DNA from: a virus
Lineage: Duplodnaviria; Heunggongvirae; Uroviricota; Caudoviricetes
Strand: one strand, 5' to 3'
Virus record (IMG/VR): IMGVR_UViG_2690316241_000009
DNA length: 38,984 nucleotides
The notes under the pieces are model-generated. The model did not search any database. It was given only the letters and a program-made list of their open reading frames with translations, and was not told the DNA's origin. The position numbers were made by a program, and so were the translations under genes. Of this stretch, positions 3,539 through 35,143 are shown one piece after another. Position 1 is the first letter of the stretch; every line of letters starts with the position of its first letter.

Positions 3539-4561
3539 ATGGGAAGAGATATAACGCTGTACCCTAAAAAAGCAACTAGAAACGAACTTAAAAATTACCT
3601 TGAAAATTTAGGTTTTAAAAGGTGTAAACATTTGTGGGAATGGCCCCAAGGAACGTTGAATTACTCTTGGTTTGATGATACGGACTTCAAATCTACAGAT
3701 GGAGTTTCGGCTGATATATATCCTGTTTCAAATGACGAACTACACATATCTGGTAATAAATGGGCATTGCATGTGCGTAATTTATATAGCGCTAGTTGGC
3801 ATGATGTAAAAATGCTTAATGATGTTCTAAAAGGCGCACGGAGTCTTTTTGGTGGAACACTTATAGGTGATTATGGGAAAAATAGGTACGCTCCTCTATG
3901 GAAGGATTCTAGTAGTCCGATCAGTCGTGGCATTTCTTCAATATTTAATCATGTCCATCATGAGATTTCCGCTGTTAAACATGCCTTACCTGAACCTTCT
4001 ATTAAATTAAACCTACCGGAAGATGGCGGCTTATCCGAATACTTTGATTACATGCAATGTATGGATCCCAGTAGAGTTATATATAATGGATTAGTACCTT
4101 TTGCGGTTGCTATGTTTGAATATTTTTTCTCTAGAGCTTTTCAAATACTTATAAAGTACGATCCTTTCGCAATAGCAAAAAGAACATCGTATAAGCAAAA
4201 AGTTGATTTTGATATTCTGCTTGAGATAGAGAAAGGAAATATTTCAATAGAAAGTGTTATTGCAAGAAATTACACTTTTCAAAACTTAACCCACCTAAAT
4301 AAAGCATATAAAGAGTGGCTGGATATAGATGTGAGAGCGATTCTTTATAAGAAAAAAAGAATTGGAAAATCAGTTGATTTTCTTGAGAATCGAATTTCTG
4401 AAATCATACAATATAGACATGGGATAGTTCATCACTTTGAGTTGGATAGGACCTTAAATCGGGATGGATATATTCATATATTAGATGCGATAGAAAAAAG
4501 CATAATTGAATTTATCCATTACATAGAAGGCAAATACAAATTTAAATTAAATGCGTATTAA
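3539..4561 (+). CDS. AT-rich cargo protein (340 aa), candidate HEPN-like abortive-infection effector
   Basis: Inserted between ogr and D on the opposite strand, with a strongly AT-rich promoter region (3348..3538). C-terminal YRHGIVHH fits the HEPN R-x4-H motif. No P2 counterpart. Confidence 0.6.
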   Translation: MGRDITLYPKKATRNELKNYLENLGFKRCKHLWEWPQGTLNYSWFDDTDFKSTDGVSADIYPVSNDELHISGNKWALHVRNLYSASWHDVKMLNDVLKGARSLFGGTLIGDYGKNRYAPLWKDSSSPISRGISSIFNHVHHEISAVKHALPEPSIKLNLPEDGGLSEYFDYMQCMDPSRVIYNGLVPFAVAMFEYFFSRAFQILIKYDPFAIAKRTSYKQKVDFDILLEIEKGNISIESVIARNYTFQNLTHLNKAYKEWLDIDVRAILYKKKRIGKSVDFLENRISEIIQYRHGIVHHFELDRTLNRDGYIHILDAIEKSIIEFIHYIEGKYKFKLNAY

Positions 4562-8238: not shown

Positions 8239-11038
8239 TATCCGGGTCGCTTTCAGCGCCGTTGACAGGCTGACCCGGCCTGCCGAAAACGCCCGCCGCC
8301 TGATGGGGCAGTTTGGTGACTCCATCCAGCGAACGCAGGGGGCGATCAAAAATCTCGAGCGTCAGGCGCGTTCATTTGAGCGCGCCCGTGACGCTGTCAG
8401 TAAAGCGGATGCGGGCATCGTGAAAGCACGACGCCAGCTTAACGCCCTTAATCAGTTACAACGCACGGGTACAGTGCTCAGCGAAAAACAACAAAAGCTG
8501 ATGCAGCAGTTAAGCACCCGGCTTGAACGCCTGAATGAATCGCGCACACGGGAAATTCAGAAAATGCGGGAACTTGGCGGAGAGCTGAAACGCCACGGCA
8601 TTTCCCTGACAGGCAGCGATAACACCATCCAGCAGGCCATCAGACGCACCGAACAGTACAACAACCAGCTTGAACGCGAACGGCAGGCGCTTGCGCGTGT
8701 AACGCGGGCGCGTGAGCGGTATTCGCGCGCGCAGGAAACCGCGGGAAAACTGAAAACAGGTGGTGCACTGGCAACAGGTGCGGCAGCGGCGGGCGGCTAT
8801 GCTGCCGGGCGTTTTTTGCAGCCCGCGATTGGGTTCGGGAAAGAGATGTCCCGCGTTCAGGCACTGACGCGAATCGACAAAAACAGCCCACAGTTTAAGG
8901 CGCTGCGTGAGCAGGCGTTAAAACTTGGCTCTGAAACGCAGTTCACCGCTGGAGATGCCGCCAGTGGACAGGCATTTCTTGCAATGGCTGGTTTTACTCC
9001 GCAGGCCATTCAGGCTGCGCTTCCCGGCGTGCTGAGCATGGCAACGGCTGGCGGTATGGATCTCGGCGAGACGGCGGATATTGGCTCAAATATCCTGACG
9101 CAGTTCGGCCTCTCTGCTGACCAGATGGACCGGGTTGGCGACACGCTTACAGCGGCGTTTACCCGTACCAACACTGACCTTCGCGCGCTGGGCGAAACCA
9201 TGAAATATGCAGGTCCGGTGGCGGGTAAGCTGGGAATATCGCTGGAGCAGGCCGCTGCGATGGCGGGCGTGCTGGCGAATATGGGCATCAGAGGGAGTGA
9301 TGCCGGGACGGCAATGCGTGCCAGCCTGGCTCGTCTGGCATCACCGCCAAAGGCGGCAGCAGAGGCGCTGAAAGAGCTGGGTGTGGCTGTCTCTGACGCG
9401 AACGGCAAAATGCGCCCGATGGAGGATGTACTGGCCGACCTTTATAAAGCCACCCGCAAATACGGGGAAGTTGACCGGGTATCGTTCTTTAAGGACATTG
9501 CCGGAGAAGAGGCTTTCACATCGTTTATGGCGCTCGTTGATGCAGCGGGTGACGGCTCCTTACCCAAACTGAGAAAAGAACTTGAAGGCGCGCGCGGTGA
9601 GGCTGAACGCACAGCAAAGGTTATGGACAACAACCTTGACGGCGATCTGAAATCACTCGGCAGTGCATGGGAAGGGTTGCGCATCCGCATTGCAGATCTG
9701 ATTGACGGTCCGCTGCGTTCTGTCACGCAGTGGCTCACGCGGGTGGTATCAAAGGTGACGGCGCTGGCGCAGGCCCATCCGGCACTGACGCGCCAGCTAC
9801 TGATTGCAGGTGGGGCATTGCTGGCGATGACTGCAACGGTCGGCTCGTTGTCGTTGGCTATTGGTGTGCTTGCTGGCCCGCTGGCAAAACTGCGTCTTGG
9901 CTTTTCCCTCCTGACCGGATCAATGAATGCTGTCAGGCTCCTGCCAGCACTATGGGGAATGGTGACGGGTTCCGTTTCGTTACTGGGGGGCGCTATCGGG
10001 GCGCTGTTCAGCCCGGTCGGATTGATTGCTGCTGCGTTTGTGGCTGCGGCGGTTCTCATCTGGAAATACTGGGAACCCATCAAGGCGTTTTATGCAGGGG
10101 TGTTCAGTGGGATTATGGAACGGCTGGCTCCGTTGCGCGAAACCTTTGAACGGTTCGGTCCAGTTTTTGATGTCGTGCGCGATGGGATTATTCAGGTCTT
10201 TAACTGGTTTAAATCGCTGCTGTCACCGATGGAGTCCAGCAAGGAAACGCTGGATAAATGTACCAGTGCTGGCGAGGTATTCGGCAGGGTACTCGGTGGA
10301 GCGATAGAGCTTGTCCTGACGCCAACAAAAGCATTGATGGATTCACTGGCGTGGATACTTGAAAAGCTCGGAGTGCTTCCGGATGAAGCGGAACGGGCGA
10401 GAAAGAAAATAGAGAACGCTTCAAAGGCTCCTGTAATGTGGGAATGGGATCCGGTTCTCAAGAAAATGGTTCAGAAACCATGGACTCCCGGCCCGGCCCC
10501 GTCAGATAAGGTCGACGACAAAAAAGGCGATAAACCCAGAGACAACAAACCGCTCACAGACAACAATACCGGTACGCTACGCAGACTCAGCAAAATTGCT
10601 GATAACACAGGTAAGCTGGTTGATGAGACGAAAAAACGCATTGGCCCCGGCGATATTGTCTTTAAGAACCTGCCCCGCGCACTTGCTGTTCGTGGGGAGT
10701 GGCAGGAGCGGAAGATTGCGCAGGTCAGTAAGCCTGCCCCCGCAATTACTATCACACCCGTGGTTCCGGCTCCGCTGCCTCCGGCGCTGGTCCCTGTTGT
10801 TGCGGCCAGCTCCCGCCCGGTGGCGGAGGCTATACGATCGCCAGTGGCATCAGTTCCTGCAACTTCCCGTAACCGGGAGCCTGTTGCCTCCGGATTTGGC
10901 GGTGAAATTCATGTTCATCTGCATAACGTTGTTACACAGAATCCCCGCGAACTGGCGAAACTGATTGGCGAAATGGTCAGGGCAGAAATGGAACGGCGCG
11001 CCCGTGCCGGGCGTGGCAGTTTTTACGATAAAGATTGA
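8216..11038 (+). CDS. T: Tail tape-measure protein gpT
   Basis: 940-aa protein with a coiled-coil N-terminus, a Gly/Ala-rich hydrophobic central region and a Pro-rich C-terminus, in the T position after E/E'. Confidence 0.9.
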   Translation: MQTMKTLDIRVAFSAVDRLTRPAENARRLMGQFGDSIQRTQGAIKNLERQARSFERARDAVSKADAGIVKARRQLNALNQLQRTGTVLSEKQQKLMQQLSTRLERLNESRTREIQKMRELGGELKRHGISLTGSDNTIQQAIRRTEQYNNQLERERQALARVTRARERYSRAQETAGKLKTGGALATGAAAAGGYAAGRFLQPAIGFGKEMSRVQALTRIDKNSPQFKALREQALKLGSETQFTAGDAASGQAFLAMAGFTPQAIQAALPGVLSMATAGGMDLGETADIGSNILTQFGLSADQMDRVGDTLTAAFTRTNTDLRALGETMKYAGPVAGKLGISLEQAAAMAGVLANMGIRGSDAGTAMRASLARLASPPKAAAEALKELGVAVSDANGKMRPMEDVLADLYKATRKYGEVDRVSFFKDIAGEEAFTSFMALVDAAGDGSLPKLRKELEGARGEAERTAKVMDNNLDGDLKSLGSAWEGLRIRIADLIDGPLRSVTQWLTRVVSKVTALAQAHPALTRQLLIAGGALLAMTATVGSLSLAIGVLAGPLAKLRLGFSLLTGSMNAVRLLPALWGMVTGSVSLLGGAIGALFSPVGLIAAAFVAAAVLIWKYWEPIKAFYAGVFSGIMERLAPLRETFERFGPVFDVVRDGIIQVFNWFKSLLSPMESSKETLDKCTSAGEVFGRVLGGAIELVLTPTKALMDSLAWILEKLGVLPDEAERARKKIENASKAPVMWEWDPVLKKMVQKPWTPGPAPSDKVDDKKGDKPRDNKPLTDNNTGTLRRLSKIADNTGKLVDETKKRIGPGDIVFKNLPRALAVRGEWQERKIAQVSKPAPAITITPVVPAPLPPALVPVVAASSRPVAEAIRSPVASVPATSRNREPVASGFGGEIHVHLHNVVTQNPRELAKLIGEMVRAEMERRARAGRGSFYDKD

Positions 11039-31029: not shown

Positions 31030-33846
31030 TCATCCCTCATGATGGAAAAGGCATATCCAACTTTGTAATTGTTTTTTCTCATCATCATTTTGATTACTAA
31101 AGTGCTGTTTGCCTCTCTTTTGGAGCAAAGTAGCCTTGCGGCGTGCGCGTTCAGTGGTTTCATTGATTCTTTGTGCGTGCTCTGTGTCACGGATGGCGCG
31201 CAGCATGTCAGAAAGCACGGTAACGGGGGTTTTCATGGTGTTCTGGTCCTGCTGAAGTGTGGATGCCAGACGTGCGGCGGCTTCGGGGTCTGATGCCCCC
31301 AGTTGTTCCAGATAGCTGGCGACCGGGTTATGGCGGATCTCTGTGCTGCTTACGCCGTGATTACGGCTCAGGCGCTGCCAGAGCTGCGTGATTCGGCTGT
31401 CCGGGCTGGTATCCGGTTTGCGTACAATTTCAAATCCCTGCGGTGCAATGATGCTGCCGTCAACGTACAGGCTGCCGCCCCGTAACAGGTGCTGCATCTG
31501 CTGTTCACCGATATGCAGGCCGAGAGATTCGGCAGATTCCCGCCATTCTTTAGCGAGTAATTCGTGGTTATCAGGCAAAGGCCGCTGCTGTTTGCGGCTC
31601 TGTGTCCAGCTCTGCATTTCATCACTGCTGTTTTTTGCCTGTTTGTCACGAAGCGAACGCATCAGCGCCCGGCGTTCGTGCCGTTTCAGTGAGCGCATCC
31701 ATTCGTTCACTTCAACGCCATCAGGGAGCTGCGGCCACGGTGCTGGCCGTTCTTCCGGCTGTTCTGTCCCGTTGTTGTTCGTTTCCTGTACACGGGGACA
31801 GTTATTGCCACGAGTCCGAGTCCAAGGGGCGGCAGGGCCGCCCTGAAGGTCAAAACCATTTTCGTGGGAGCTGTCTTCCGCTTCCGGTTTGCGTCTTACC
31901 AGCTTCCAGTTATCCGGATGCGTGCATACGCGGGAAGACTCCCCGATGAGCGGCGACCAGATCCCGTAAATCTGTACGCTCTGTTCGCCGTAATCGTTCA
32001 GCTCATCTGCGAGGTCGTAGGCGGTGCGAATCAGGTAGTCTTTGCGTGGAACAAGTACGCCGCCCTGTTTCTCTATGTAGGTGGCAAAACATCCGGCATC
32101 AGCGGCAGCGAGTACCGCATCCATTGCGTCATCCTTCAGCCGTTGCGGGCCTTCCGGGTTGCGTGCCATCTGGCTGGCAAGGCGGCGGAGTTCACGCCAC
32201 ACCTGACGGGAGGGGATACCAAAGAACTGGAACTGGCGGACACGGTGAAGGCGCGCCCAGCCGATGGCGCGTTCCACGCTCTCGGCCATTGATTTTCCGG
32301 TTTCGTGGTCAACGCGTGGCTTGCCCGTTTTCGGGTCGATGCCATCTACGGCGCGGCTGTCCAGGTTCTTTCCGATGTAGGTGGCGATGTAGCTGGTTGG
32401 CGTGCCTTTTGAGCCGTCGACGTACTCCGCCTTAAAGCGTGGGGTAATATCATCACCCAGCTCGTGACGATCTTCCTGAATGGCAATATCGCGGGTGTGG
32501 GACACAATGGTGTCGATTTCTTCCGGATGAGCAAAGACCATCATATGCCAGTGCACGGTGCCGTCATGGTGAGGCTCCACCGTGCGGATGCCATACCAGC
32601 GCAGGCCGTCGCGGTTCAGTTTCTTGCGGACCGCCGCAAAAAACGTGTTAACCAGGTAATCGCTGGAGTCGCGCATGGTGGCCCCGTTCCATTTGGGATT
32701 CGGATGACCGTTCTCTGTTGTGGCGTGGTATTTTGACGGGCAGGTGATGGTCAGAAACACCGCTTTGTCGCCACGGGCTTCGGCCAGAAGTTCCAGCCCC
32801 TTCATGGTGGCCATCATTTCTGCCTTACGGTGAACCGGGTTACTTACTCCCGCGTAATACACTGTCTCGAGATCAATCGTGAACCCGTCTTCGTTTTCCA
32901 GAATGAAACTTTTCAGGAAATCGCGTGTTTTCTCGCGCTGTGCGCGAAACTCGCTTAACGCGTCCTGGCTCAGATAGGGCGATGTTTTTCTGGAAACCAG
33001 ACAGGCGGCGCGGAGTTGTTCTTCCCGCCACTCGCAACGTAACAGCCACAGTTTGCGTTTCCACCATTCCGCACAGGTCAGGCGAAGGATTGCGCCCGGT
33101 AACAGTTCCGTATCCGGATCGCTCTTGTTCAGAGCTTCGTAATGTGGCGGCATGGCGTGCAGGTGTAACGCCATGCGGGCCAGCATCTGATACGCCTTCA
33201 GCGTTACATCCATGGTCAGTTCGCCATCGGTCGCGCCAAAGCCATCGCAGAGTTTTTCGAAGGTGCTGCTGAACATCGCCGCCGTCATGGTGGCCAGCGT
33301 CTGTATCTGGTACTGGTTGAGCTGCGGCAGGTAAAGCAAATCATCCAGGCGTTCGCGTCCGGCAAGGGAGCGATAACCCGGTGTCAGCCAGCGGTGGTCG
33401 GTGCGGTCCAGACGTTCGAATATTTTGCGCAGTGTTCCGCGCGCGTAGCGTTCAGCCTGCCAGCTCTTTTTGCCTTTCCGGCGATCGGCTTCCTGTTTTT
33501 TGCGCAGGAAGGAGAGGTGGCGAATAAGCGGATCGCGCAGATAGGACGGCAGCAGGCGCAGCGAGGCCATGGCTTCATCCACCGCGCCGCGTGCCTGTTT
33601 TCTGGCGTCTCCTGCCAGTGTGATGGTTTTGTCCTGTTTTTCCTGTGCGTCCAGGCTTTTATTAATCAGGTTGCCCAGCGGCGTGGCGGAGAACGCCGCA
33701 TCAGCCATTTCCTGGCGGCGCTCGTTCTCTGCCCGGTAGGCATCCAGCCAGGAGGAAAGCGCGGATTCAGGAACGGGGATCCCCGTTCCTTCACGCCCCA
33801 CTGCGTGGCGCGGTTGTTGCCAGTCCCTGATGTACTCTGCCGTCAT
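31030..33846 (-). CDS. A: Replication initiation protein gpA (rolling-circle endonuclease)
   Basis: 938-aa protein in the A position at the end of the early operon, with an HxH motif (VHWHMM). Longer than P2 A as I recall it (761 aa). Confidence 0.85.
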   Translation of the reverse strand: MTAEYIRDWQQPRHAVGREGTGIPVPESALSSWLDAYRAENERRQEMADAAFSATPLGNLINKSLDAQEKQDKTITLAGDARKQARGAVDEAMASLRLLPSYLRDPLIRHLSFLRKKQEADRRKGKKSWQAERYARGTLRKIFERLDRTDHRWLTPGYRSLAGRERLDDLLYLPQLNQYQIQTLATMTAAMFSSTFEKLCDGFGATDGELTMDVTLKAYQMLARMALHLHAMPPHYEALNKSDPDTELLPGAILRLTCAEWWKRKLWLLRCEWREEQLRAACLVSRKTSPYLSQDALSEFRAQREKTRDFLKSFILENEDGFTIDLETVYYAGVSNPVHRKAEMMATMKGLELLAEARGDKAVFLTITCPSKYHATTENGHPNPKWNGATMRDSSDYLVNTFFAAVRKKLNRDGLRWYGIRTVEPHHDGTVHWHMMVFAHPEEIDTIVSHTRDIAIQEDRHELGDDITPRFKAEYVDGSKGTPTSYIATYIGKNLDSRAVDGIDPKTGKPRVDHETGKSMAESVERAIGWARLHRVRQFQFFGIPSRQVWRELRRLASQMARNPEGPQRLKDDAMDAVLAAADAGCFATYIEKQGGVLVPRKDYLIRTAYDLADELNDYGEQSVQIYGIWSPLIGESSRVCTHPDNWKLVRRKPEAEDSSHENGFDLQGGPAAPWTRTRGNNCPRVQETNNNGTEQPEERPAPWPQLPDGVEVNEWMRSLKRHERRALMRSLRDKQAKNSSDEMQSWTQSRKQQRPLPDNHELLAKEWRESAESLGLHIGEQQMQHLLRGGSLYVDGSIIAPQGFEIVRKPDTSPDSRITQLWQRLSRNHGVSSTEIRHNPVASYLEQLGASDPEAAARLASTLQQDQNTMKTPVTVLSDMLRAIRDTEHAQRINETTERARRKATLLQKRGKQHFSNQNDDEKKQLQSWICLFHHEG

Positions 33847-33852
33847 AGTGAT

Positions 33853-34218
33853 TTACTTCGTCATGCCATTCAGGGTGTCGCGGCAGACGGCAGCCAGCCG
33901 CTGAATTTCCAGCACGGTGTCTTCTGTGTCGGCATGGCGATGTGTGATGCGGATGCTGTCGGCAATCACATCGACGATTGCAGAGGATGGGCGCTGGTAA
34001 ATGCCAATAACGGACGGGGTGCCATCTTCAATGCGGTAAAGCCTGTAATTTCCCTCGTGGCTGTCAATCATGTAGCGACCATCAATAACAATCTTTCCGT
34101 CAGCGAGCTGCGGTACAGGCAGGGATTTCTGGTACATGTCATAACGATCACGCACGCGAGCGGCAAGATCACGTTCTGTGTTGAGCAGGTATTCAAGAAA
34201 GTCGTTGGCGAGAATCAT
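33853..34218 (-). CDS. Early-region hypothetical protein
   Basis: 121-aa ORF directly upstream of A, same strand. Confidence 0.55.
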   Translation of the reverse strand: MILANDFLEYLLNTERDLAARVRDRYDMYQKSLPVPQLADGKIVIDGRYMIDSHEGNYRLYRIEDGTPSVIGIYQRPSSAIVDVIADSIRITHRHADTEDTVLEIQRLAAVCRDTLNGMTK

Positions 34219-34290
34219 TGCGGCAATCCTCTTGTTACAGATGTGCGAAGGCCTCCCGCCGCAAGGTGCAGGAAAGGCCCGGAACAGGAA

Positions 34291-34521
34291 TTAATGGAGT
34301 TTGTTTTGCTGCTGGATGAGCTGTTGAAGCTCGTGCAGATCATCCGCCAGATAGCTGAAAACAGAGGCGGAATAAATGTTTGATAGTGCGTGGCTGCGCT
34401 CATGCAGCATATTGATGTGCATGATTTGCGCGACGCGTGATGCGCGGGAAAGTCTGCGGTTGATTTCAGTCTGGATGTGACGACGCTCCGCGATAGCGCG
34501 GTGTGGTTTGCGGTTTGCCAT
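34291..34521 (-). CDS. Early-region hypothetical protein
   Basis: 76-aa ORF in the early operon; basic N-terminus. Confidence 0.45.
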   Translation of the reverse strand: MANRKPHRAIAERRHIQTEINRRLSRASRVAQIMHINMLHERSHALSNIYSASVFSYLADDLHELQQLIQQQNKLH

Positions 34522-34708
34522 GGTGTGGCCCCTTGTGTAGTAAGTTGTGAAAACTCACCATCCAGAGCTGCGAAACTGTGGGTGGCGAGACGTACGAGGT
34601 TCGCAGTACCGGCTACACAAGAACCCGGCCCGACCGAAGTCGGCCCCGTACGCCCCGCCATAATTCTGACGCGAAAAAAACGTGGCAATACAGTACGCAC
34701 AAAAAAAC

Positions 34709-34733
34709 CGCTGGCGCGGTTGTGCGCTTGTGT
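34709..34733 (-). terminator. Intrinsic terminator-like hairpin inside the early region (minus strand)
   Basis: On the minus strand: AACCGC-GCCA-GCGGUU followed by U7. Confidence 0.5.
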
Positions 34734-34843
34734 AGTCAGCAGGCTGCGAAACCCGACACCCGTTTTGTGAGGTGCAGCGGAAATGTAACCTGACTGATTG
34801 CGGCATGGCAAGCGGTTTTTTTGTGTGTGCATGTTCTGGTTTC

Positions 34844-35143
34844 TTACTGGTTCAGAAAAAAATCAAAAACCTTGTCAATGCGTTGCAGCAGCTCTTGCTG
34901 TATTGCTTCCGGTGTTTCCGGTTCGCCTGGCGCCTTCAACGTCGCGCAGAAATCAGCGATTTCATGATGGAGCGTCAGGCGAATGGCAGGAGCCGTGGTT
35001 CTGGCGTGCTCCAGCTCATCCAGCAGTGCCAGCACAGCAGACGGCGAGAGCATTGCGCGAAATACCAGTAATTTTTGAGGCGTTGCCATTCGTTGCAGGG
35101 CAAATGCCAGTTCGCGTAGCTTCTGGTGATTGATGGTGCTCAT
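34844..35143 (-). CDS. Early-region hypothetical protein
   Basis: 99-aa ORF whose start overlaps the stop of the upstream ORF. Confidence 0.5.
   Translation of the reverse strand: MSTINHQKLRELAFALQRMATPQKLLVFRAMLSPSAVLALLDELEHARTTAPAIRLTLHHEIADFCATLKAPGEPETPEAIQQELLQRIDKVFDFFLNQ

Follow-up and report, generated by a model that had tools for sequence, protein, structure and literature searches.

What is the 320-bp gap at positions 34522-34843 of the virus record IMGVR_UViG_2690316241_000009? The whole stretch of 38,984 bases that was analysed (the window) is a complete P2-family phage, nearest to Xuanwuvirus/P88, with P2-type capsid and tail genes, gpA, cox and a P2-C-type repressor. The gap is the exact interval between an open reading frame (ORF) of 99 amino acid residues (34844-35143, minus strand) and an ORF of 76 residues (34291-34521, minus strand). 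GenBank and RefSeq records label the region as 'hypothetical protein', 'ash family protein' or not at all, and an RNA annotation was absent from all records sampled. An original prediction, made from the sequence alone, had placed a small RNA or an attenuator upstream of the replication gene A. This was right in spirit, but the identity of the repeats in the gap as C4 recognition elements and their targets had been missed. With a probability of about 0.8, a P88-like phage (Xuanwuvirus, P2-family) has in this gap of its early operon an antisense-RNA immunity cassette of the P4/P1 type. The feature itself is real and is confidently assigned to the antisense-RNA immunity system of C4/CI and isrK/seqA, a known kind of RNA switch that is found here in a P2-family phage. 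In the literature library that was searched, no paper linking C4 or isrK to P2-like phages or to Xuanwuvirus was found.

The two small RNAs and their target sites

The window was scanned with Rfam at the gathering thresholds (GA). Only two matches were obtained, both in the gap, on the minus strand and full-length. The isrK/P4-seqA-like leader RNA at 34701..34775 (RF01394) scored 61.9 bits (GA 50) over model positions 1-77 of 77, and the C4/P4-CI-like antisense RNA at 34578..34665 (RF01695) scored 83.2 bits (GA 45, E 4.5e-15) over positions 1-87 of 87. A permissive scan added only a weak match to RF03163, 'a1, b1 targets of C4', and this overlapped the isrK match in its 5' part. The isrK-like RNA is encoded on the strand of the C4-like RNA, 36 nt upstream of it and with a predicted promoter of its own, and the order on the minus strand is a sigma-70-like promoter, the isrK/seqA-like RNA with its own terminator and the C4/CI-like antisense RNA. 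An independent or 3'UTR-derived small RNA, which was one suggestion of the original prediction, was essentially the right idea, since two genes for small RNAs of known families are encoded in the gap, on the minus strand. The covariance-model search and the minus-strand folding that it had proposed as checks both gave a positive result, with the matches to RF01394 and RF01695 and with a C4 fold that equals the family consensus.

Relatives of the cassette came from 80 loci of IMG/VR whose encoded protein shares at least 89% identity with the 76-residue product of the downstream ORF. They yielded 42 distinct upstream sequences, and the set used for covariation comprised 36 distinct sequences over an aligned 303 nt.

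The C4-like RNA consists of a closing stem of 17 bp, a UUCG hairpin and a second hairpin, which carries the recognition element a' in its loop, whereas the element b' is located in the 3' junction. After the stem comes the 3' tail CCCAC, and a stem followed by CCCA resembles the 3' end of a tRNA. The minimum free energy (MFE) of the RNA was −47.7 kcal/mol with a z-score of −4.46. In the 36 sequences, the C4 helices 4-6 were 100% paired with four positions changed on both sides, and the relatives scored 74-84 bits with RF01695. A stem-loop with a CGAA tetraloop that had been noticed before is present; its loop on the plus strand (34635-34638) is the UUCG tetraloop of the C4 hairpin 1 on the minus strand.

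The isrK-like RNA is built of hairpin 1, hairpin 2 with the target b1 in its loop, a linker with the target a1 and an intrinsic terminator. Folding of 34775..34699 gave three hairpins with the terminator among them. The terminator (34699..34721, minus strand) has a 6-bp stem at 34721..34706 followed by seven U residues at 34705..34699, and its stem is invariant among the relatives. A minus-strand terminator with a U7 tail had already been recognised, although at about 34709..34733, which is shifted by some 10 nt from the actual hairpin. Hairpin 1 was merely 84% paired in the relatives and showed no compensatory change.

The predicted promoter (34782..34811, minus strand) reads TTGCCA-18 nt-TACATT and matches the sigma-70 consensus at 9 of 12 positions. 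Position 1 of the isrK model (34775) is 7 nt downstream of the −10 hexamer, and both hexamers are unchanged across the 42 relatives. As judged by eye, the P4 promoter PLE (TTGCCT-17-TATAGT) has the same placement relative to the isrK model. Another promoter-like site was seen at 34660-34688 on the minus strand (TTGCCA-17-AATTAT), where the −10 hexamer coincides with the conserved 5' tail of C4. It was rejected as a promoter: the −35 hexamer is mutated from TTGCCA to TCGCCA in about one third of the relatives and a start from 34688..34660 would truncate the C4 stem. The site is probably non-functional.

The repeats that had first drawn attention to the gap are explained by the C4-like RNA. The 9-mer CTTGTGTAG occurs three times in the window and, as described before, all copies are within the gap, two direct (34532-34540 and 34727-34735, plus strand) and one inverted (34613-34621, minus strand). 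The expected count is 0.11, and three copies were reached in none of 100 shuffles. The 10-mer GCTGCGAAAC was likewise found twice, at 34567-34576 and 34743-34752 (expected 0.16; two copies in 0 of 100 shuffles), and a third copy, inverted and imperfect, had been overlooked at 34597-34606. The inverted 9-mer is the recognition element a' (34613..34621, minus strand, RNA CUUGUGUAG), and the two direct copies are its complements a1 (34727..34735, RNA CUACACAAG) and a2 (34532..34540, RNA CUACACAAG). The element b' (34600..34606, RNA CUGCGAA) is single-stranded, and the copies of the 10-mer contain the complementary targets b1 (34744..34750) and b2 (34568..34574), both of them UUCGCAG in the minus-strand RNA. 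The complements are exact over 9 nt at the a sites and over 7 nt at the b sites.

The targets form two pairs. The pair b1/a1 is upstream in the isrK-like RNA and the pair b2/a2 is downstream in the 57-nt leader of the next gene, which encodes an epsilon-like protein. Along the RNA, the order is promoter, b1 and a1 (inside the isrK-like RNA), terminator, C4 with a' and b', b2, a small hairpin, a2, the Shine-Dalgarno sequence (SD) and the AUG. The site a2 overlaps the SD of the epsilon-like gene: it ends with the three nucleotides that begin AAGGGG (34534..34529), which is located 7 nt before the AUG at 34521.

The 76-residue product of this gene (34291..34521, minus strand) matched Pfam PF25738 'Derepression' with 32.5 bits (GA 27) and phrog_3688 with an E value of 1e-46. 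In BLASTP, it was 29% identical to the epsilon protein of P4 over 66 residues (E 4e-9). Judged from these similarities, it is a homologue of epsilon, the derepression protein or anti-repressor of P4, and its gene is the one that the cassette is predicted to gate directly. The P4 epsilon protein binds the C repressor of P2 (PMC2995052). The repressor of the window is 37% identical to P2 C, and cox is present.

Downstream in the same transcription unit follow orf121 (33853-34218, minus strand) and the gene for the replication endonuclease A (31030-33846, minus strand; Phage_GPA, 434.7 bits), which are expected to be affected by polarity. The proposal of an attenuator for read-through into A holds insofar as a terminator and RNA-RNA target sites stand on the path to A, but the gene under direct control is that of the anti-repressor homologue. 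In the spacer between the epsilon-like gene and orf121 (34219-34290, minus strand), a GC-rich hairpin (GGCCUUUCC...GGGAGGCC) without a U-tail was observed. This spacer (76-nt) has just two differences to that of the Citrobacter phage phiSM.

Covariation and specificity types among the relatives

In the aligned relatives, the promoter hexamers, the terminator and the C4 stems were near-invariant, and the variation was concentrated in six hypervariable short patches that are a', b', a1, b1, a2 and b2. The helix between a1 and a' (9 bp) was 100% paired with six positions changed on both sides, and the helix between a' and a2 (9 bp) was 95.7% paired with five such positions. Both b helices (7 bp each), b1 with b' and b' with b2, were 100% paired with four positions changed on both sides. 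At a single helix position, as many as four pair types were found. The covariation score was 0.373 compared to 0.078 in shuffles, where it was reached in 0 of 500, and control helices that had been slid along the sequence were only 34-48% paired.

The relatives fell into at least 11 a types and 5 b types in 13 combinations, when phiSM, Salmonella and one further locus were included. The duplex between the C4-like RNA and the leader had a mean energy of −23.5 kcal/mol for cognate partners and −13.0 kcal/mol for non-cognate partners, and types with a or b in common were intermediate. Because the a and b sites covary in a three-way manner and the cognate duplexes are stronger, the alignment provides strong evidence that the predicted contacts between the RNAs exist and are selected for, with a specificity that diversifies.

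The RNA type was then compared to the allele of the C repressor in 24 of 81 loci; in the others cox and C were too divergent or missing. The two were unlinked, since one C allele was found with two or three RNA types and one RNA type with several C alleles. This reassortment matches the pattern expected of a second, independent immunity determinant, as in P1/P7.

The cassette is widespread in Escherichia coli. With a threshold of at least 80% coverage, it was found in 1152 of the 5426 complete E. coli genomes (about 21%). Conservation across P2-like phages, another check that had been proposed, was observed in part: P88, phiSM and the IMG/VR relatives carry the cassette with both RNAs, whereas neither RNA is present in the early regions of P2 and 186.

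Some loci deserve a separate mention. In an IMG/VR contig (2582580934_000004; locus L072, 236-340), a 17-nt insertion in the C4-like RNA results in two tandem a' hairpins, one of the type of locus L028 and one of the type of the window. This RNA still scored 73.9 bits and could be either a recombinant of dual specificity or an artefact of the assembly. Probing of the species-representative genomes with the 76-residue protein gave three loci only, in Salmonella, E. albertii and 'Vagococcus'. The last one (NZ_JBQPOM010000071.1, 'Vagococcus sp.'; locus L169) has an enterobacterial P88-like cassette with an epsilon-like protein of 88% identity in an assembly labelled as Gram-positive, and is probably a contamination. 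The genes directly upstream of the cassette (at about 34830) differ between the relatives L011, L030, L041, L078, L084 and L083, with an SPFH-domain protein in P88 and a 183-residue DNA-binding protein in phiSM as examples. This looks like a variable cargo slot that abuts a conserved block of cassette, epsilon-like gene, orf121 and A.

Proposed mechanism and alternatives

How could the cassette work? By analogy to P4 and P1, where the C4-type RNA is excised by RNase P, the internal promoter would generate a read-through RNA from which the C4-like RNA is excised. Acting in trans, the C4-like RNA would pair with b2 and a2 and block the binding of ribosomes to the epsilon-like gene. The untranslated mRNA would then be terminated early by Rho-dependent polarity, leaving orf121 and A silent in the lysogen. 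The isrK-like RNA could modulate this in two ways, as its terminator would limit the read-through and its targets would pair with a' and b', either in cis or as a short decoy RNA. The specificity would lie in the hypervariable a and b sites, and a superinfecting or co-resident phage of another a/b type would escape the resident RNA. The analysis demonstrates the anatomy, the complementarity with its maintenance in evolution and the homologies, and the repressive role is carried over from P4 and P1. Most likely the module is of the P4/P1 type, blocking the translation of the anti-repressor and, by polarity, the expression of A.

Several points weigh against this mechanism. The promoter is a consensus match only, and the processing, the Rho dependence and the repression are carried over from P4 and P1. 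In Gifsy-1, the one close system with the exact isrK-C4 arrangement that has been studied by experiment, the short IsrK RNA activates translation, and constitutive expression of the C4-like STnc1160 did not relieve the IsrK toxicity (PMC4825925). In addition, the epsilon-like protein is at least 89% identical among phages whose C repressors are less than 50% identical, which is awkward if the phage's own C is the sole target. Finally, the transcripts of the early operon must get past the isrK terminator to express the essential A.

An activating switch of the Gifsy-1 type might be the main function of the cassette, in which case the read-through RNA is inactive because of the isrK-C4 pairing in cis and is opened by the short isrK-like RNA in trans, so that the anti-repressor is translated and the prophage induced. 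The MFE fold of the 291-nt read-through RNA indeed pairs the a1/b1 region with a' and b' in cis, and a1/b1 covary with a'/b' as strictly as a2/b2 do. In Gifsy-1, IsrK in trans raises the translation of anrP more than 100-fold and the induction needs IsrK (PMC4825925). The covariation of a2/b2, located at the SD, with a'/b' in every type is left unexplained by such a switch. Moreover, the published model needs a translated orf45 that overlaps C4, and the equivalent frame here has no coding signature. We regard the switch as a possibility of some weight but short of an even chance; it is compatible with repression by the C4-like RNA, where the C4-leader pairing would then be secondary.

The left edge of the conserved cassette raised another possibility, which would be an addition to the cassette rather than a replacement of its function. 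At 34808..34828 (minus strand) an A-tract is followed by CCGCUUGC (RNA ACACACAAAAAAACCGCUUGC), forming the inverted repeat I1. The segment 34828..34808 is complementary at 19 of 21 positions to the 3' half of the isrK terminator and its U-tract (34715..34695), and 60 dinucleotide shuffles reached at most 16 of 21. It might pair with the terminator such that early transcripts read through and transcripts from the internal promoter terminate, which would be a promoter-dependent attenuator. In the MFE fold of an RNA that starts upstream (−48.9 kcal/mol, z −3.85), the terminator hairpin was replaced, whereas the RNA from the isrK +1 formed the terminator. The arm is also invariant in the 42 relatives, even where the sequence farther upstream has been replaced. 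Since neither arm ever varies, however, a covariation test is precluded. Pairing of the arm with the terminator's 3' half would be kinetically unfavourable for anti-termination, and the arm overlaps the −35 region and an A-tract that could simply be an UP element. By-eye inspection of P4 revealed no equivalent. An attenuator of this kind is unlikely on balance, and 34828..34808 could serve as an UP-like element, as an anti-terminator arm carried exclusively by transcripts with an upstream start, or as both.

A wider picture can be drawn, but only tentatively. P88-like phages of the helper type would carry the immunity and epsilon module of P4, and the covarying a/b 'barcodes' would constitute a second, RNA-encoded dimension of immunity that reassorts freely, a with b and both with the C allele, and decides on superinfection and cross-induction among near-identical prophages. 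The early transcripts may carry the built-in anti-terminator (34828..34808) as an extra layer.

A protein encoded in the gap is very improbable. The original prediction had stated that no credible ORF spans it. Mechanically, ORFs do cross the gap, with 205 codons (34215..34832) and 83 codons on the minus strand and 97 and 71 codons on the plus strand, but none of them is supported as coding. A candidate that was taken seriously is an 'Ash family' protein, either the 205-residue ORF at 34832..34215 or a shorter form that begins at an AUG where C4 has its 5' end. No stop interrupts the frame over 205 codons, it is also preserved in phiSM, and its TGA overlaps the ATG of orf121 as ATGA (34215-34218). 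The conserved AUG at the 5' end of C4 (34659-34661, minus strand) has the position of the Gifsy-1 orf45, which is reported to be translated (PMC4825925). The Pfam match to PF10554 reached 32.9 bits in phiSM (GA 26), but with 25.0 bits the frame of the window remained below the threshold. The ORF also overlaps, in another frame, with the epsilon-like gene, which is well supported. All three sense frames contain few stop codons, and many relatives have two of them open together. The substitutions between the window and phiSM are concentrated at codon position 2 (14, 23 and 16 at the three positions), and indels of 1-2 nt occur in the relatives L024, L066 and L062, with three variants breaking the frame. 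In P4, PF10554 maps onto the region of the immunity factor, which is described as an RNA processed from an untranslated transcript. The low stop density, the wrong codon-position pattern, the indels and the low score leave the coding interpretation unsupported.

PF10554 'Phage_ASH' itself appears to be the conceptual translation of a non-coding immunity RNA region. In P4 (locus L082, 8168-8812, minus strand), it matches an ORF over PLE, seqA, CI and seqC with 82 bits, whereas the real epsilon protein matches PF25738. The PF10554 frame was also seen at 3690-4307 of locus L083, and in the window it covers 34215-34832 (minus strand). The family is listed as the 'epsilon' marker for P4-like satellites (PMC8628076), and with the match in phiSM it can also pick up full P88-like phages.

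That the gap is an origin of replication, an array of protein-binding sites or an element of the retron kind can practically be dismissed: short direct and inverted repeats near a replication gene are all that speaks for it, the repeats except I1 are explained by RNA-RNA complementarity with compensatory change, no iterons were seen, and the P2 origin is annotated inside gene A. As the original prediction had already noted for a retron, a reverse transcriptase was absent from the neighbouring ORFs that were scanned; the Rfam scan, which covered the whole window, gave no retron RNA family either.

With the antisense-RNA immunity cassette as the preferred interpretation, the 320-bp 'hypothetical' gap becomes an annotated regulatory module, which most likely gates an anti-repressor and a replication gene in a very common type of E. 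coli prophage. The covariation series and the consequences for annotation are the most useful by-products, and the natural covarying a/b types are a ready panel of orthogonal pairs of RNA repressor and target.

Comparison with known immunity systems

Four systems were compared to the cassette. One is the sar RNA of P22, an antisense RNA that controls the synthesis of the anti-repressor Ant in a second immunity region. It is cis-encoded, has no structural or sequence relation to C4 and is an analogue only.

In the isrK - STnc1160/orf45 - anrP region of Salmonella Gifsy-1, isrK and its terminator precede a C4-like RNA that is processed, and an anti-repressor gene comes next; the isrK part pairs with the C4 part (PMC4825925), as predicted for the window. 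In contrast to the window, Gifsy-1 is a lambdoid prophage and its anti-repressor is unrelated. There, the short IsrK activates translation via the translated orf45, whereas here a2 and b2 are directly at the SD of the anti-repressor gene. The binding of Hfq and the trans-activation of the anti-repressor mRNA by isrK are known for Gifsy-1 only (PMC4825925).

The immI region of P1/P7 (a1 b1 - c4 RNA - a2 b2 - icd - ant) shares with the window an antisense RNA of the RF01695 family that is flanked by two target pairs, and in both cases the first ORF of an anti-repressor operon has its ribosome-binding site covered by the downstream pair. A second specificity determinant that is independent of the protein repressor would also be common to both, and the independent c4 specificity is the basis of the heteroimmunity of P1 and P7. 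The c4 RNA of P1/P7 controls icd and ant (PMC8201110). Different from P1/P7, the epsilon-like anti-repressor is unrelated to Ant, icd is absent, and the cassette is inside the early lytic operon upstream of a replication gene.

The fourth system is the immunity region of P4 (PLE - seqA - CI RNA/seqB - seqC - kil/eta - epsilon - ... - alpha), whose elements are named in the literature as seqA, CI RNA (seqB) and seqC (PMC4825925, PMC3632133). There, CI arises by processing of an untranslated leader and brings about premature termination, such that the replication genes stay silent (PMC4825925, PMC3632133). Both RNA families are found in the same order and on the same strand as in the window: isrK at 8692..8615 and C4 at 8507..8420 are followed by b2, by a2, which overlaps the SD of the first ORF, and by epsilon. 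As in the window, b2 and a2 are spaced by about 35 nt, a homologous epsilon gene follows downstream, a replication gene is at the end of the unit and the a'/b' specificities are hypervariable and modular. The two differ in that the first gated ORF is epsilon itself in the window, behind its 57-nt leader, and kil/eta in P4, where epsilon is 245 nt downstream. The spacer between isrK and C4 is 36 nt in the window and 108 nt in P4, and the replication gene encodes the gpA nickase in the one and the alpha primase in the other.

We also inspected 80 P4-like loci (L087-L166), in which epsilon is 97-99% identical, and found seven a' types and three b' types, with a and b reassorting in a modular way. 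Cross-talk with P4-like satellites via common a/b types was considered and rejected, as none of the types in these 80 loci occurs in the P88-like set. The gene set of a P4-like satellite, with sid, psu, delta and the alpha primase, without structural genes and with the RNA as the sole immunity factor, is not that of the window, where a full phage of the P2 family has structural genes, gpA, cox and a C repressor of its own. The window has only the immunity-epsilon module in common with the P4-like satellites. This module of P4 is common to P2-family phages of the helper type, although the laboratory models P2 and 186 lack it, which bears on the exchange of control modules between satellites and their helpers.

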